Shown in pieces: positions 5,784-53,634 of a stretch of 64,000 nucleotides of DNA. Below the pieces are notes generated by a model, which was not told where the DNA came from, made no database searches, and was given only the letters and a program-made list of their open reading frames with translations. The position numbers and the translations under genes are program-made. Origin of the DNA: Candidatus Elulimicrobium sp. GTDB taxonomy: Bacteria; Patescibacteriota; Minisyncoccia; Phycocordibacterales; UBA918. The stretch spans positions 1,783-65,782 of the forward strand of contig DYNY01000004.1 in the NCBI GenBank assembly GCA_020720815.1. The letters run 5' to 3'. Position 1 is the first letter of the stretch, and each line of letters opens with the position of its first letter.

Positions 5784-6683
5784 TTATCGCCCCATCTCCC
5801 GTAAAATACGGATTCTGTCTTCGGCTGGTGGGTGAGTAGCAAAAAGTCCATTGATTTTTTGTCCAATTGATCTCTTTCCGCCTACACTATATGGGTCAGC
5901 AATAAACAAGTGGGCGGTAGCGTGTGAGACACGGCGTAGAGGTTGATGATTTTGGGAAATTTTTTCTAACGCTGAAGCTAGACCTTCTGGGTAGCGAGTT
6001 AAAAGAGCAGCTGAGGCATCAGCTAAGTATTCGCGCTTACGTGAAATAGCGAGTTGAATCATCTGAGCAGCAATCGGAGCGAGAATAATTCCAGCGATAC
6101 CAAGAATGAGAAATAAAGGATTGCGCTCTCTATCACTATCACCACCAAACATCAAGGCGCGAGAAAGAAAGTCTGCCAAAATAGCTACAAAACCAGCCAG
6201 CACCACTGCCACAGTCATAACCAACATGTCGCGATTACCAATATGTGACAGTTCATGAGCCATCACACCTTCCAGTTCATTTTTATTAAGCAAGGCCACT
6301 AAGCCGGTGGTGGCTGCTACTACCGCATGCTCAGGATCCCTGCCAGTCGCAAAAGCATTTGGTGATGGGTCATTTACTAGATAAATCTTCGGCGTTGGTA
6401 AGCCAGCGGTAATCGAAAGATTTTCAACAATATTATAGAGCTCTGGCGCCTCTTGTCTTTCTACCGGCTTAGCACCAGTCATACTAAGTACTAATTTATC
6501 AGAAAACCAATAGCTACCAATATTCGTCATTATAGCGAAAATCACCGCTAGATAAAGAATACTTGAGTCATTTAAATACCAACTAACCACATAACCAATA
6601 GCTATCACGGCTATCAAAAAAGAACCCATCAGGAACCAAGTCTTCCTGATATTACTATCTTGTTGTGTGTAAAGTGTGGCCAT
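5784..6683 (-). CDS. htpX: Zinc metalloprotease HtpX (peptidase M48B)
   Basis: HELSHIGNRD HExxH motif, N-terminal TM helices, 299 aa. Confidence 0.85.
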   Translation of the reverse strand: MATLYTQQDSNIRKTWFLMGSFLIAVIAIGYVVSWYLNDSSILYLAVIFAIMTNIGSYWFSDKLVLSMTGAKPVERQEAPELYNIVENLSITAGLPTPKIYLVNDPSPNAFATGRDPEHAVVAATTGLVALLNKNELEGVMAHELSHIGNRDMLVMTVAVVLAGFVAILADFLSRALMFGGDSDRERNPLFLILGIAGIILAPIAAQMIQLAISRKREYLADASAALLTRYPEGLASALEKISQNHQPLRRVSHATAHLFIADPYSVGGKRSIGQKINGLFATHPPAEDRIRILREMGR

Positions 6684-32637: not shown

Positions 32638-33903
32638 TCAAGAAAGATACGGTAAACGCACCCTAAAGCTTGTGCCAATATTTTCTTGTGATGTAACAAC
32701 TATAGTACCGCCCAGTTTCTGAACTGACTGCTTAACGATATATAATCCCAAACCAGTACCAACCGCTTGATGCGAATAAGCATTTCTGGCTCGGAAAAAC
32801 TTGGTAAATAATTTACCAAGTTCATCAGCCGGAATACCTATACCACTGTCGGATACCGTAATAATTATCTCATTATCAATAAGTTCATACTGATATTTGA
32901 TTTTTCCTTCCGGCGGTACATATTTAACAGCGTTAGAAAGTAAGTTACTTATGATTATGTGTAACAGACGGGGATCACTAACAAAATTAAGGTTGGGTGG
33001 ATTTTCGGTACGCTCAAAAAAAATTTTATTCTCAACCAATTTCTGATCATATTCATCTACGATGGCATCTAAAAATACAGTTAGATCTATTACTTCAGCA
33101 GTTGTCGCAAAAGTGCCCATCTCTAGTTTTGAAACATTGAGAAAGTCGTTTATCAGAGCCAGCATACGCATCACGTTTCGGTCAATTTTAGTTAAGTATT
33201 TAGCTTGTGCTTCAGTTTTTGTTGCCTCTAAACTACGCACTAACAATTCTACATTCCAGCGAATAGCTGCTATAGGAGTACGCAACTGATGAGTTGCCAA
33301 AGCCACGAAATCTGTCTTAGCTGCATCAACCGCTTTTTGATGGGTGATATCAATCATTGATACCAATCTTTGTTCTCCTAATTCGTAAACATAGACTGAT
33401 AATAACAGCCAACGTAATGATCCCTTTTCGGTATGAAGCTGTATTTCTTGATCAACAATCGTATGGTCTGAAAAAAGCTTACCTAGGATAATAGATAAGT
33501 CATTCTCGTCTTCTAATGACAAATAATCACTAAAACGCAAACCTAAAATTTTGTCATTAGTAGTTTCAAACAGTCTGACAGCGGCTGGATTGTACATCAC
33601 TACACGACCACCAGCATCCAAAGATATATAAGGTATCGGGCTTCTTTCATACAAAGAAACAAACTGTTCACTGGAGACTAGAGATATTTGGGTCTGCTTA
33701 TTTCTTAATTGTTCATTAGTTTTAGCAAATAATGACTGAATAACAACTACGGCTATGACCTGAAGTAAAAAAGCACCAAACAAAATTGGCGAGACTTGTT
33801 GTGGCGATTCAGTAAAAAACCAAATGAACACCGGAATAACCAAGACCAGAAACGAAAACAAATAAAAAATAAAACGCAACGATGTTCGCACTACTTTAAT
33901 CAT
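32638..33903 (-). CDS. Sensor histidine kinase (TM, PAS-like, HisKA, HATPase_c)
   Basis: H-box ATHQLRTPIAAI, N/G-box region LSNAVKY..SDSGIGI..GTGLGL, two N-terminal TM helices. Confidence 0.85.
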   Translation of the reverse strand: MIKVVRTSLRFIFYLFSFLVLVIPVFIWFFTESPQQVSPILFGAFLLQVIAVVVIQSLFAKTNEQLRNKQTQISLVSSEQFVSLYERSPIPYISLDAGGRVVMYNPAAVRLFETTNDKILGLRFSDYLSLEDENDLSIILGKLFSDHTIVDQEIQLHTEKGSLRWLLLSVYVYELGEQRLVSMIDITHQKAVDAAKTDFVALATHQLRTPIAAIRWNVELLVRSLEATKTEAQAKYLTKIDRNVMRMLALINDFLNVSKLEMGTFATTAEVIDLTVFLDAIVDEYDQKLVENKIFFERTENPPNLNFVSDPRLLHIIISNLLSNAVKYVPPEGKIKYQYELIDNEIIITVSDSGIGIPADELGKLFTKFFRARNAYSHQAVGTGLGLYIVKQSVQKLGGTIVVTSQENIGTSFRVRLPYLS

Positions 33904-33977
33904 ACCATCTGCCAGAACAGAAAATCTAAGATTATTGGGTTTTTTCGAGCTTATCTAGATATGATATTATTTGGTTA

Positions 33978-34349
33978 ATGGAAACAAAAAAAATCTTAAT
34001 TGTGGAAGACGAAACCGATATTCGAGAAGCCATGGCTGAAGCCATTATTGACGCAGGCTTCATTACTTTAACTGCCAAAAATGGTCAAGTTGGTTTACAA
34101 ATTGCACTTAAAGAACGCCCGGACTTAATTTTACTCGATTTAATGATGCCGGTTTTAAATGGACACGAAACACTCAAAAAACTTCGGGAAGATGCCTGGG
34201 GTAAAAACGCAAAAGTAATTGTTCTAACTGCTATGGATGATGTGACTAACATAGCCACTGCCCATCAAAATCCAATCGAGGACTACATAATAAAAGCCCA
34301 CACTAGTCTTGAAGAACTAATTAAAAAAATTCGACTAGCTTTAATTTAA
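33978..34349 (+). CDS. Single-domain response regulator (CheY-like receiver)
   Basis: ILIVEDE..LILLDLMMP (phospho-acceptor Asp) ..KVIVLTA. 123 aa with no output domain. Confidence 0.85.
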   Translation: METKKILIVEDETDIREAMAEAIIDAGFITLTAKNGQVGLQIALKERPDLILLDLMMPVLNGHETLKKLREDAWGKNAKVIVLTAMDDVTNIATAHQNPIEDYIIKAHTSLEELIKKIRLALI

Positions 34350-50618: not shown

Positions 50619-51884
50619 TTAGGAAATAACCTCCTTACCCATAAATGGTCGCAGTACTTCCGGAATCACGATTGAACCATCAGCTTGTTGGAAGTTTTCT
50701 AGCAAAGACACCAAAATACGAGGAGTTGGGATGGCCGTACAGTTTAATGAATGGGCGTAACGCATCTTTCCTTCATCATCGCGGTAGCGAATATTGAAGC
50801 GGCGAGTTTGGAAGTCGTGGAAATATGAAGCTGAACTAATCTCACGATAGGTCTTTTCCCCCGGTACCCACAGCTCAATATCATATTTCTTTACTTGACC
50901 CTGACCCAAATCACCACCACAATTTAACACCGTGCGGTATGGGATACCGAGTGATTCGATAAACTCTTCCGTATTACTATTTATCCATTCATGCCAGCGG
51001 ACACTTTCTTCGTGTGAAGCTTCACACAGTAACACTTGCTCTAGCTTGAAAAATTCATGGACTCGAATCAAACCTTTGGTATCCTTACCATGACTACCTG
51101 CTTCCCTTCGATAGCAAGGTGAAAAAGCCAAAAACTTCATCGGTAGCTCTGCTTTATCTATCACCTCATCACTGTATAGTCCCATTATGGAAACTTCACT
51201 GGTACCGATTAGGTAATCCTCATCTTGAGTTTTATAAACATCTTCTGCATCATTTGGCAGGTGGCCAGTACCATATAAATTACTCTTACGAACTATGGCC
51301 GGGACCAAAAGCGGTTCAAAACCCTTAGCTAAGAAAAATTGATTAGCGTAGTTCCAAATCGCCCAAGAGAGGCGGGCACCGTCACCACGCAAATAATAGC
51401 CACGAAAACCATGCACTTTCACTCCACGTTCGAAGTCAGCCATCTTGTGCTTAGTCATAAGGGCGACGTGATCCTGAGACGGAAAAGAGAACTGGGTTTG
51501 TTCACCCCAGAGTTTGACCTCCATGTTATCTGCGTCACTGGTTCCGTCTGGTACCGACATGTCTGGCACGTTAGGGACCTGCAACATCAACTTCTGCCAC
51601 TCTTCCATGATTGTCCGAAGTGCTTCCTCATCTTTTTGTATCTCAACTTTAAGGGCCTGCATTTCAATTATTAACTGCTCGCGCATAGCGCCATCACTAC
51701 CAGCACTGGCAATATTGACCGATACTCGGTTTTGCTCGGCCTTCTTAGTTTCAAGCAAGGTCATGCGTTCTCGCCTCTGGTCGTCAACAACCAGAAGTCT
51801 ATCGATATCGACCAGGATCTTTTTCTTCACGGCCGCCAGCTTCACAATTTCGGCATTTTCTCTAATGAATTTAATATCTAACAT
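50619..51884 (-). CDS. serS: Seryl-tRNA synthetase
   Basis: MLDIKFIRENAEIV start, class II motifs, 421 aa. Confidence 0.92.
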   Translation of the reverse strand: MLDIKFIRENAEIVKLAAVKKKILVDIDRLLVVDDQRRERMTLLETKKAEQNRVSVNIASAGSDGAMREQLIIEMQALKVEIQKDEEALRTIMEEWQKLMLQVPNVPDMSVPDGTSDADNMEVKLWGEQTQFSFPSQDHVALMTKHKMADFERGVKVHGFRGYYLRGDGARLSWAIWNYANQFFLAKGFEPLLVPAIVRKSNLYGTGHLPNDAEDVYKTQDEDYLIGTSEVSIMGLYSDEVIDKAELPMKFLAFSPCYRREAGSHGKDTKGLIRVHEFFKLEQVLLCEASHEESVRWHEWINSNTEEFIESLGIPYRTVLNCGGDLGQGQVKKYDIELWVPGEKTYREISSASYFHDFQTRRFNIRYRDDEGKMRYAHSLNCTAIPTPRILVSLLENFQQADGSIVIPEVLRPFMGKEVIS

Positions 51885-51946
51885 ACAAAAACAATTCCAT
51901 TAATTACGTAAAATTGATTATAGCGTACTTACCCAAAAAAGTAGAC

Positions 51947-51975
51947 ATAAAAAACCCGCCATGGTGGTGGCGGGT
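51947..51975 (-). terminator. Rho-independent terminator for the GNAT gene (cccgcc-accaccat-ggcggg, then TTTTTT on the minus strand)
   Basis: Perfect GC stem plus a 6-nt T-run on the coding strand of the upstream gene. Confidence 0.8.
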
Positions 51976-52035
51976 CTTGGTGGTGGCCATGTTGGCCGAA
52001 AGGATAGCTGACAGCTACCAGCGAATATCGGCTTT

Positions 52036-52614
52036 TCATGCCGCCACCATGTTCTGGTCGGTGTTCTCCAGAAATTCAGCCCTACGGCGCATGATTTCAC
52101 TCGACATCTTATAGTCAAGTACCATGAGAACGGCGGGTGCCTTATCGAGACCTTTCGTTCCTTCAGTCCGAGCCAGTTCAACCGCACCATAACGCCGGTA
52201 CAACCCGACGTGGTTAGGATTGACCATCATCACTGCGACGCTGACGTCGTTGGTGAGCGACCACTCAGTTACCGCGGAGGCCAGCAATTGCTTGCCGACC
52301 AGCTTGCCTTGCAAATTGGGAATGACGGCAAACTTGCCGAAATAACCAATTCGTCCACCATACTTCTCACGAAGGACTCGCATCTCCTTCGGAAATACCA
52401 GATCAGTAGGCAAGGCCTCGTTGTCCCTGGAACACATGAGCGTTCCGGTGGGCACACCGGAACGTGTCACCATAAGTACATCACTTTGAAGTTTCCGCTT
52501 CTCAGCGAAGTAAGCACGGAGTGCGCCTACTATTCCAAGTGGATGATAATACCCCAACTTGGCGTACGCAACGAAAACAATCGTCGCGCAAACTATATGT
52601 TGTAGAACAATCAT
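52036..52614 (-). CDS. GNAT-family N-acyltransferase (acyl-amino-acid-synthase-like), encoded on a high-GC islet
   Basis: The FAVIPNLQGKLVGKQLL acyl-CoA-binding motif-A-like region. About 55% GC against about 38% for the surroundings. Start chosen at ATG 52614, which has a GGAGAG Shine-Dalgarno site. The tracked ORF extends to 52662. Confidence 0.55.
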   Translation of the reverse strand: MIVLQHIVCATIVFVAYAKLGYYHPLGIVGALRAYFAEKRKLQSDVLMVTRSGVPTGTLMCSRDNEALPTDLVFPKEMRVLREKYGGRIGYFGKFAVIPNLQGKLVGKQLLASAVTEWSLTNDVSVAVMMVNPNHVGLYRRYGAVELARTEGTKGLDKAPAVLMVLDYKMSSEIMRRRAEFLENTDQNMVAA

Positions 52615-52746
52615 GGTTCTCTCCAGTGGACCTACTAAATGTGGGGGATAACCTCCCCGCACGGTCCGATAAATGCTTGGAGGTCCCGGAGGAGCAAACT
52701 AGAGGTAGTCTATCATATATTTGACAAAAAGTCAATGTAGTGCCGA

Positions 52747-53634
52747 GTGGTGTATAATAATCTACATATGGACAGCAAATATCCAATCGAATCTATCCCT
52801 CTCTTAGAATTTCCTCCCCTTCTGCACGAAATCCCCGACCCACCAAAAAATCTTTGGTACCAAGGTAATCTTCCCCCGGAAGAATTAAAGTTACTGGCTG
52901 TGGTCGGCTCAAGGAAATACACCAGCTACGCCAAACAAGTAATTGATTATTTATTTACCGGCCTCCGCGGTTACCCAATAGCTATCATTTCGGGTCTGGC
53001 ACTTGGGGTAGATGGTCTTGCTCATGAAGCGGCTATAAAAAATAACTTGTATACCTTGGCTATACCAGGTAGTGGACTAGACCCAAGCGTGCTTTATCCT
53101 AGCTGTCACCGCCAATTAGCCGAAGATATTTTAAAACATGGTGGTGGCTTGTTATCAGAATATTCACCCGAAACCACGGCTGCCCCATGGACCTTTCCAC
53201 AACGCAACCGCATAATGGCCGGACTAACCCACGCCACCTTACTCATTGAAGCCGGGGCAAAATCCGGTACCCTTATCACAGCTCGCCTAGCTGTAGACTA
53301 CAACCGCGAACTTTTGGCTGTCCCAGGCAACATCTTTTCTAGTAATTCATACGGTACACACCAATTCATAAAACTCGGTGCTACCGTAATAACCGAGCCG
53401 GAAGACATAATCATAGCCCTTGGTTTAGAGCCAGAAAGTTCGGCCGTAAAAACTCGCTCCGTACTTTCATTAACTGAAGAAAAGGTTATCAATCTACTCA
53501 ACGAACCAAGAGATAAAGATGACCTTATCCGTGCCCTCTCTCTACCACCCGGAGAAGCAAATATTTTGCTTATGCAGATGGAAATGAAAGGTTATATTGC
53601 TTATAACTCTCCCCTCTATTATAACCTCATATAA
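52747..53634 (+). CDS. dprA: DNA-processing protein DprA (Smf)
   Basis: LLAVVGSRKYTSYAKQV...ISGLALGVDGLAHEAAI Rossmann signature. Confidence 0.88.
   Translation: MVYNNLHMDSKYPIESIPLLEFPPLLHEIPDPPKNLWYQGNLPPEELKLLAVVGSRKYTSYAKQVIDYLFTGLRGYPIAIISGLALGVDGLAHEAAIKNNLYTLAIPGSGLDPSVLYPSCHRQLAEDILKHGGGLLSEYSPETTAAPWTFPQRNRIMAGLTHATLLIEAGAKSGTLITARLAVDYNRELLAVPGNIFSSNSYGTHQFIKLGATVITEPEDIIIALGLEPESSAVKTRSVLSLTEEKVINLLNEPRDKDDLIRALSLPPGEANILLMQMEMKGYIAYNSPLYYNLI

Follow-up and report, generated by a model that had tools for sequence, protein, structure and literature searches.

A cassette of ~0.78 kb in a 64,000-nucleotide (nt) stretch of contig DYNY01000004.1 from Candidatus Elulimicrobium sp. (hereafter the window) fills the divergent intergenic slot between dprA and serS. 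Its one protein belongs to the FeeM family, has the FeeM fold and falls in a "Tyr-type" branch that is still uncharacterised. The leader RNA that precedes the gene is a genuinely new element of the cassette and is interpreted as a translational control element that sequesters the Shine-Dalgarno (SD) sequence. With moderate confidence, we read the cassette as an autonomous expression unit for a translationally gated N-acyltransferase confined to one clade. The cassette is old within the clade that carries it and has been lost at least once, and the slot in which it sits is variable across the class.

Patescibacteria, also known as the Candidate Phyla Radiation (CPR), are ultra-small and mostly uncultured episymbionts. 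How these bacteria communicate with or manipulate their hosts is largely obscure, and the cassette, which can be cloned, offers a concrete candidate source of a lipid-derived effector or signal; its leader RNA, being short and conserved, lends itself to a direct search for a ligand or trigger. If the enzyme were an ordinary acetyltransferase, the finding would be routine. The locus also illustrates that a compositional "islet" with housekeeping genes on both sides need not be newly imported and may have occupied a variable slot for a long time.

The cassette contains a single open reading frame (ORF), which begins with ATG:

52036..52614, minus strand: FeeM-family GNAT acyltransferase gene, 192 amino acids (aa), stop codon included (Pfam PF21926, structure model, match to 2G0B).

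The ORF protein matches the Pfam family FeeM (PF21926) at 64 bits, against a gathering cutoff of 27 (E=1.8e-17), and the same family is matched by all of the sampled relatives (90/90). Generic GNAT models in Pfam reach at most 24 bits, 40 bits under the FeeM model, the weak matches being Acetyltransf_1 (24 bits, just over its cutoff) and Acetyltransf_7. An AlphaFold2 model built on 23 sequences, with a predicted local distance difference test (pLDDT) score of 92.6, has its best PDB matches in the chains of FeeM 2G0B, which align at full length over 172-183 columns with template modeling (TM) scores of 0.67-0.76. Acetyltransferase structures align over only ~140-150 columns, at a TM of ~0.5. 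FeeM was missed by direct phmmer and narrow-profile searches of the PDB; the 90-sequence family profile, which was required to detect it, places FeeM 2G0B at E=1.4e-30 and the next chain at 1.9e-5. FeeM alone aligns from end to end, with the N-terminal helices and their Y..GY motif included.

The same data bear on the alternative that the protein is an ordinary acetyl-CoA-dependent GNAT, for example one acting on small molecules, antibiotics or proteins, whose likeness to FeeM is superficial. Such an enzyme would account for the weak Acetyltransf_1 and Acetyltransf_7 matches, for the many acetyltransferases that Foldseek returns at E ~1e-7, for the absence of the catalytic Glu of FeeM, and for a Q-G-x-x-x-G loop that is partly P-loop-like. 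We consider it unlikely, given the 40-bit lead of the FeeM model, the 25 orders of magnitude in E-value by which the family profile sets FeeM apart from other PDB GNATs, and the restriction of the full-length alignment to FeeM. The NCBIfam scan, moreover, yielded no acetylase equivalog, its sole match scoring 13 bits against a cutoff of 134. This last result, together with RimI-like structures that align over ~140 columns at a TM of ~0.48, against 0.7 for FeeM, led us to reject a RimI-type ribosomal-protein acetylase.

A LuxI-like synthase of acyl-homoserine-lactone (AHL) quorum signals is another candidate identity. FeeM and the LuxI-type synthases have the same fold variant (PMC9654057, PMC10404671), CPR genomes are reported to encode LuxI homologues beside sensor kinases (PMC7567580), and distant members of the present family adjoin histidine kinase and response regulator genes (L092 and L096 among the comparison loci, which are numbered with an L throughout). 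LuxI-type enzymes such as LasI, EsaI and BjaI also resemble the ORF in being typically solitary small genes, use acyl thioesters, and make products that are signals. We nonetheless hold this identity to be very improbable: the ORF protein has no Pfam match to the LuxI family PF00765 (Autoind_synth) at E<=1, no AHL synthase is among the top 50 fold matches of the structure model, and in neither the window nor the eight slot orthologues does a kinase or LuxR-type gene adjoin the ORF. The N-acyl synthases of PF13444 (Acetyltransf_5), which include OlsB and the human-microbiome N-acyl synthases (hm-NAS), are comparable in the reaction proposed here, in which an amino acid is N-acylated from a fatty acyl thioester, but they form a different GNAT family, to which the ORF protein likewise has no Pfam match at E<=1. 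A preliminary description of this DNA had likened the enzyme to N-acyl-amino-acid and autoinducer synthases and had set it against the ribosomal-protein acetylases. The likeness holds for FeeM and fails for PF13444 and LuxI, and the separation from ribosomal-protein acetylases is borne out.

Residue by residue, the ORF protein has in common with FeeM the Y17..G21-Y22 helix, G57-T58, D64..L68-P69..D71..F74, R82, N132-P133-x-H135..Y139 and the strand A159-P160-A161. D64, D71, R82, K94, H135 and Y139 are conserved. H135, L138 and Y139 align to FeeM H145, F148 and Y149, which lie at the phosphopantetheine tunnel and the interface with the acyl carrier protein (ACP) (PMC11685415, PMC9654057). The FeeM motifs that line the amino acid and phosphopantetheine sites (D..LP.D, NPxH and Y149) are thus present in the ORF protein, which is, like FeeM, a single small stand-alone enzyme of ~190 aa.

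The second component of the cassette is the leader, an RNA element of ~70 nt with three stacked helices that lies within a 5' untranslated region (UTR) of ~86 nt:

52612..52683, minus strand: structured 5' leader (ten-instance alignment, covariation, folding).
52683-52679 with 52624-52621, minus strand: helix P1, CCUCC with GGAG of the SD sequence (predicted pairing).
52667-52663 with 52632-52628, minus strand: helix P2, GGACC with GGUCC (covariation).
52658-52654 with 52648-52644, minus strand: helix P3, GGGGA with UCCCC (covariation).
52619..52624, minus strand: SD sequence GGAGAG, 4 nt 5' of the ATG, predicted to be paired within helix P1.

Its general layout is CCUCC-N6-11-[GGACC]-N3-5-[GGGGA-loop-UCCCC]-N8-13-[GGUCC]-N3-7-GGAG-N5-9-start, and the internal loops carry semi-conserved nucleotides. 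The leader is found in ten loci, comprising all eight slot orthologues and two loci in which the gene has another context, L090 and L091. The instances outside the window are:

L002:7933-8003; L005:7717-7792; L007:734-804.
L008:1299-1369; L089:5929-6001; L090:119-183.
L091:5933-6002; L095:1156-1224; L097:105-172.

In a register-fixed alignment of the ten leaders, 98% of the P2 and P3 cells are paired. Compensatory changes occur in 4/10 tested pairs, three of the five in P2 and one of the five in P3 (G-C/A-U, A-U/G-C), which indicates selection on RNA pairing. The covariation score of the leader is 0.311, compared to 0.157 +/- 0.026 for shuffled alignments, and was reached by 0/500 shuffles; slid-alignment controls gave covariation far below that of the leader. 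All nine leaders that were folded (9/9) have minimum-energy structures with a nested P2-P3 core and the SD region inside an outer helix, and most of these nine show the exact CCUCC:SD register of P1 (z-scores -1.1 to -4.4). A covariance model and a pattern scan, which covered 0.81-0.86 Mb of related sequence, window included, placed the leader only 5' of FeeM-like genes. It was not found at the more distant FeeM-like genes of L092, L093 and L096, and Rfam 15 gave no leader match at E<=1 nor at gathering thresholds. An alternative pairing of CCUCC with an internal GGAGG and of UCCC with the SD sequence, which RNAalifold proposed from the raw MAFFT alignment, was set aside as a possible alternative conformer only, its second helix being weak.

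The element might instead be a stabilising 5' stem-loop, or an operator acting at the DNA level only, and not a translational switch. No ligand or partner is known for it, P1 is beyond a covariation test, and a palindrome in the promoter shows that conservation at the DNA level exists in the region. Evidence to the contrary is that the P2 and P3 changes are compensatory, and that CCUCC is invariant at a fixed position and paired with the SD sequence in most folds, with the SD enclosed in all nine. In addition, the leader accompanies the gene to L090 and L091, where the stretch of upstream sequence displayed has no evident palindrome. On balance a role without switching appears somewhat unlikely. 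Known SD-sequestering leaders, such as the translational riboswitches SAM-III/SMK and RNA thermometers, are similarly short 5' UTR elements that pair the SD sequence in a multi-helix hairpin. The cassette leader is set apart from them by its lack of an Rfam match and by its occurrence, so far, only before this FeeM-like subfamily on Patescibacteria-type contigs.

The remaining elements of the locus are as follows:

52735-52730, minus strand: -35 box TTGACT of the acyltransferase promoter, identical with the minus-strand half of the TTGAC palindrome (promoter scan).
52707..52712, minus strand: -10 box TAGACT, TG-extended, of the cassette's own promoter, with a 17-nt spacer from the -35 box (promoter scan).
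52721..52735, no strand: palindrome TTGAC-N5-GTCAA in the divergent promoter region; left cassette boundary, where homology to L009 stops.
52029..52043, minus strand: stop-codon hairpin CGGC-AUGAAAA-GCCG, with the UGA within the loop and the last Ala-Ala codons as the 5' arm (RNAalifold).
52002..52019, minus strand: second hairpin of the 3' UTR (GGUAGCUG/CAGCUAUC), constant in position among all orthologues but not in sequence, which differs from one to the next.
51945..51978, minus strand: intrinsic terminator, stem CCCGCC/GGCGGG, extendable to 11 pairs, then U6; right cassette boundary.
51917..51922, minus strand: serS -10 box TATAAT, 3' of the cassette terminator.
50619-51884, minus strand: serS, downstream on the same strand as the cassette gene (Pfam).
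52768-53634, plus strand: dprA, divergent and upstream of the cassette gene (Pfam).

Transcription of the cassette would start near 52700. Boxes of the form TGaTAnAnT, equivalent to the cassette -10 box, are present in the orthologues, and the palindrome is kept upstream of the gene in L002, L007, L008, L089, L095 and L097; it may represent a pair of -35 boxes placed back to back, or else the operator of some regulator. The terminator proper, CCCGCC-N8-GGCGGG-T6 at 51978-51951 on the minus strand, lies 58 nt 3' of the stop codon. Since serS has its own -10 box after this terminator, it does not depend on the cassette promoter, and a block around the serS promoter, CTACTTTTTT..GGTATAATC, is kept in L007, L008 and the gene-less L009 (alignment). 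A functional linkage of the enzyme to serS, for example through aminoacyl-tRNA-dependent chemistry, was rejected on the grounds that serS has its own conserved promoter and that homologues with the same leader reside away from serS (L090, L091).

Homologues of the ORF are rare. A word-indexed search returned 8 and a profile query 23; among 1.84 billion representative proteins the number of homologue clusters was 14 with E<=1e-30 and rose to 231 with E<=1e-3, and a scan of metagenome contigs with the family alignment gave just two loci. Every homologue of 48-66% identity whose context could be fetched sits between dprA and serS. The serS-anchored loci drawn from species-representative genomes are all from metagenome-assembled genomes (MAGs) of Patescibacteria/CPR (labels Paceibacteria, Kaiserbacteria and similar). 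The order dprA, FeeM-like gene, serS occurs in eight lineages (window/L001, L002/3/4, L005/6, L007, L008, L089, L095 and L097), which represent species-level Paceibacteria lineages; it was not found in the 79 other relatives examined. Between the window and the carrier loci, identities are 80-87% for serS, 80-85% for topA, about 62-75% for dprA and 40-54% for the FtsQ-like gene. Neighbor-joining (NJ) trees of serS, of serS+dprA and of serS+topA+dprA place the six placeable carriers in one clade, the L095 and L097 loci being too short for placement.

The gene-less L009 (JAWKSQ010000002) is informative about the history of the cassette. Its dprA-serS intergenic region is 176 bp, its serS is 85% identical to that of the window, and it is nested in the carrier clade beside L007 and L008, with a serS identity of 95%. 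Aligned to L009, the cassette extends from the TTGAC palindrome at 52721-52735 to the terminator T-run at ~51945; a four-way alignment shows that L009 lacks exactly this stretch, with homology resuming directly after the terminator. The nested position of L009 therefore indicates loss of the cassette. Across Paceibacteria (L009-L088), we also observed that the slot is a variable cargo site, empty (72-176 bp) in many genomes and elsewhere occupied by unrelated genes for beta-barrel/porin-like, type IV pilin-like, PP2C-like phosphatase, LexA-like repressor and hydroxylase-like membrane proteins. Examples of slot cargo are:

L010:3192-3869; L011:3432-3920; L015:3103-3903.
L025:3156-3890; L057:3184-3921; L058:2474-3085.

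In base composition the ORF is exceptional for the window. Its GC content is 51.5%, with a peak of 54% in 300-nt windows, as compared to 44.7% for serS, 45.0% for dprA and 41.2% for the whole window, and its level is reached by just 0.5% of 579-nt windows. The excess lies mainly at third codon positions, where the GC fraction (GC3) of 0.565 exceeds that of every other ORF among the 50 in the window (mean 0.354, sd 0.066, z = 3.6). The orthologues too are GC-rich, by +3 to +13 points, as are the homologues in the unrelated contexts of L090 and L091 and those in hosts of 40-51% GC, and for this reason the excess is not diagnostic of recency. On these sequences, the raised GC3 appears to be a property of the gene family and not the scar of a recent transfer.

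The recent import of one foreign gene by horizontal transfer, with a high-GC donor as its source, would fit the top rank of the ORF in GC and GC3, the clean absence of the cassette from the close relative L009, and the different cargo in the same slot of outgroups. These points are outweighed by the retention, in eight lineages and at the same slot, of the promoter palindrome, the leader and the terminator position; by protein identities of only 48-66%, which imply long residence; by the loss indicated by L009; and by the recurrence of the GC excess just described. The site itself has only short, chance-level repeats with no convincing target-site duplications, no integrase, and no tRNA within 7 kb. 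In a plasmid collection the sole match was 34% identical over 57% of the protein, and PADLOC defence models gave no match. The nearest homologues with a judgeable source are on Patescibacteria-type MAG contigs, and no high-GC donor lineage was found. The recent-acquisition reading is thus largely refuted, and what likelihood it retains is very small indeed. It was the reading of the preliminary description, which was accurate in other respects: the one-gene GNAT cassette with its own GGAGAG ribosome-binding site and terminator between serS and dprA is confirmed by sequence and Pfam, and the extent it gave, 51940-52720, almost exactly equals the boundaries of the L009 alignment. The GC contrast it reported is a real anomaly of smaller size, since it put the cassette at 55% and the surroundings at 38%. 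The recency it proposed does not survive the presence of the gene in the same slot of eight lineages whose serS and dprA have diverged as given above, most of them with a similar GC excess. The comparison of the serS-dprA junction among relatives that it suggested gave the result it had itself listed as refuting its reading, save that the nested L009 is without the gene.

Within the carrier clade, the divergence of the FeeM-like protein fails to follow the species tree. L007 and L008 are 95% identical in SerS and 66% in the FtsQ-like protein, but only 54% in the FeeM-like protein; for L001 and L002 the corresponding values are 81%, 47% and 66%. The dprA gene beside the slot is unusually divergent among L007, L008 and L009 (72-86%). 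In the gene tree, a group of L001, L002, L005 and L097 (77% bootstrap) cuts across the species tree, and L090 and L091, the homologues in other contexts, fall among the slot alleles. These patterns lend modest support to allelic exchange or replacement, to recombination around the slot, or to diversifying evolution at the fixed dprA-serS locus.

We propose the following model for the cassette. A sigma-70-type promoter would drive an mRNA that consists of the ~86-nt 5' UTR with its leader, the coding region of the FeeM-like enzyme, and a multi-hairpin 3' UTR that ends in the terminator. Translation would be off by default through sequestration of the SD sequence by the leader, and would be switched on when a ligand, a protein, a small RNA or temperature opens or remodels the leader. 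The enzyme would then move an acyl group, probably a fatty acyl group, from acyl-ACP or acyl-CoA to an amino group. The acyl donor may be scavenged from the host, the acceptor may be an amino acid or similar amine, and the product would be a lipid, surfactant or signal of the N-acyl amino acid type. The cassette may have been gained once in the ancestor of the clade, its alleles being exchanged or diversified later.

Several observations weigh against this model. Both HMMER and hhalign align the catalytic Glu94/95 of FeeM, which is on strand beta4, to Tyr91, and FeeM Q97 is aligned to Lys94; among the 23 closest relatives neither replacement varies. Over the 90-sequence sample the catalytic-Glu position is Tyr in 50, Glu in 26 and another residue in 14. 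Glu94/95 is the proposed catalytic residue of FeeM, and the equivalent E103A mutant of Nas354 is inactive (PMC4897644). With Tyr in place of the catalytic Glu, the inferred chemistry could differ, and by that criterion the enzyme is not a bona fide type I synthase. The equivalent of the CoA-binding P-loop (Q-G-K-L-V-G) departs both from the canonical form and from that of FeeM. The loop after beta4 is shorter than in FeeM. FeeM works with FeeL, whereas the ORF has no adjacent ACP, fee-type cluster or PEP-CTERM/exosortase context; no ACP gene is adjacent in the eight loci, and the 64-kb window has no AcpP-like match and no acyl-activating gene, a result that is uninformative for the whole genome. 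As a rule, Patescibacteria do not synthesize fatty acids and are believed to obtain lipids by scavenging (PMC12455944), and the ORF differs from FeeM in residing in such a presumed non-synthesizing host as well as in having a dedicated SD-sequestering leader. For the leader, the P1 bases are all invariant, and consequently no covariation test of P1 is possible. As to history, the NJ trees of the species phylogeny carry no bootstrap values, and the gene tree has a star-like shape and conflicts in part with the species tree, so that a single gain with vertical descent is not the whole story.

A bolder version of the model takes the leader to be a riboswitch or riboregulator of a new class, controlling translation of a Tyr-type FeeM-like synthase whose N-acyl amino acid-type product, built from host acyl chains, would let the symbiotic bacteria signal to or act on their hosts. 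The allelic diversity, with FeeM-like identity of 54% at a serS identity of 95% and with presence/absence of the gene, would then be pherotype-like. We regard this as a speculative and decidedly unlikely extension.

The gene context of the wider family contains hints of a signalling role. In L092:733-5661, two distant FeeM-like paralogues, 72% identical, stand in tandem and are joined by a third, divergent copy, beside genes for an OmpR-type response regulator and a histidine kinase, and the distant FeeM-like gene in L096:2-1478 directly follows a histidine kinase gene. This arrangement of a synthase with a sensor is reminiscent of quorum-sensing loci. The window has a histidine kinase gene (ORF 32638-33903, minus strand) and a receiver-domain-like stretch (33990-34334, plus frame) ~18 kb from the cassette, and these two-component genes (32650-34334) resemble those beside the FeeM-like genes in L092 and L096. 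A gene for an EAL-domain protein (a cyclic di-GMP phosphodiesterase) lies between the FeeM-like gene and serS in L002:8834-9604, and also in L003 and L004. Nas354, a characterised N-acyl amino acid synthase, is fused to a cyclic di-GMP-binding PilZ domain (PMC4897644). By analogy, a link of the FeeM-like gene to cyclic di-GMP signalling is possible.

At the 3' end, RNAalifold analysis of eight orthologous 3' regions showed that one pair of the stop-codon hairpin is C-G in four and G-C in three sequences, the change being made through a synonymous third-codon site. The conserved '-VAA' tail of the protein may partly reflect an RNA constraint; alternatively, it could serve as a degron of the ClpXP type. 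The terminator position is shared by L002, L005, L007, L008, L089, L095 and L097, and every orthologue has its own GC-rich hairpin and T-run there, of a different sequence. Across the window the terminator pattern is not enriched (2 found, 1.4 expected). An Rfam isrK match over the terminator was sub-threshold and was dismissed as chance. A 12-nt complementarity (92%) of 51960-51971 with 52040-52051, between the loop and 5' arm of the terminator and the last codons, was considered as a possible anti-terminator; it is not conserved in L089 and is probably due to chance. The deposited gene call in the L089 locus (L089:6001-6705, 234 aa) runs through an in-frame TGA and is probably an annotation artefact, as the ORF under translation table 11 ends at 6597 (198 aa, '...GLAA*'), in agreement with its orthologues. 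On the other side of the slot, in region 52747-52770, the TATAAT box of dprA is only ~9 nt 5' of its ATG (52768), and the dprA mRNA may be leaderless or nearly so.

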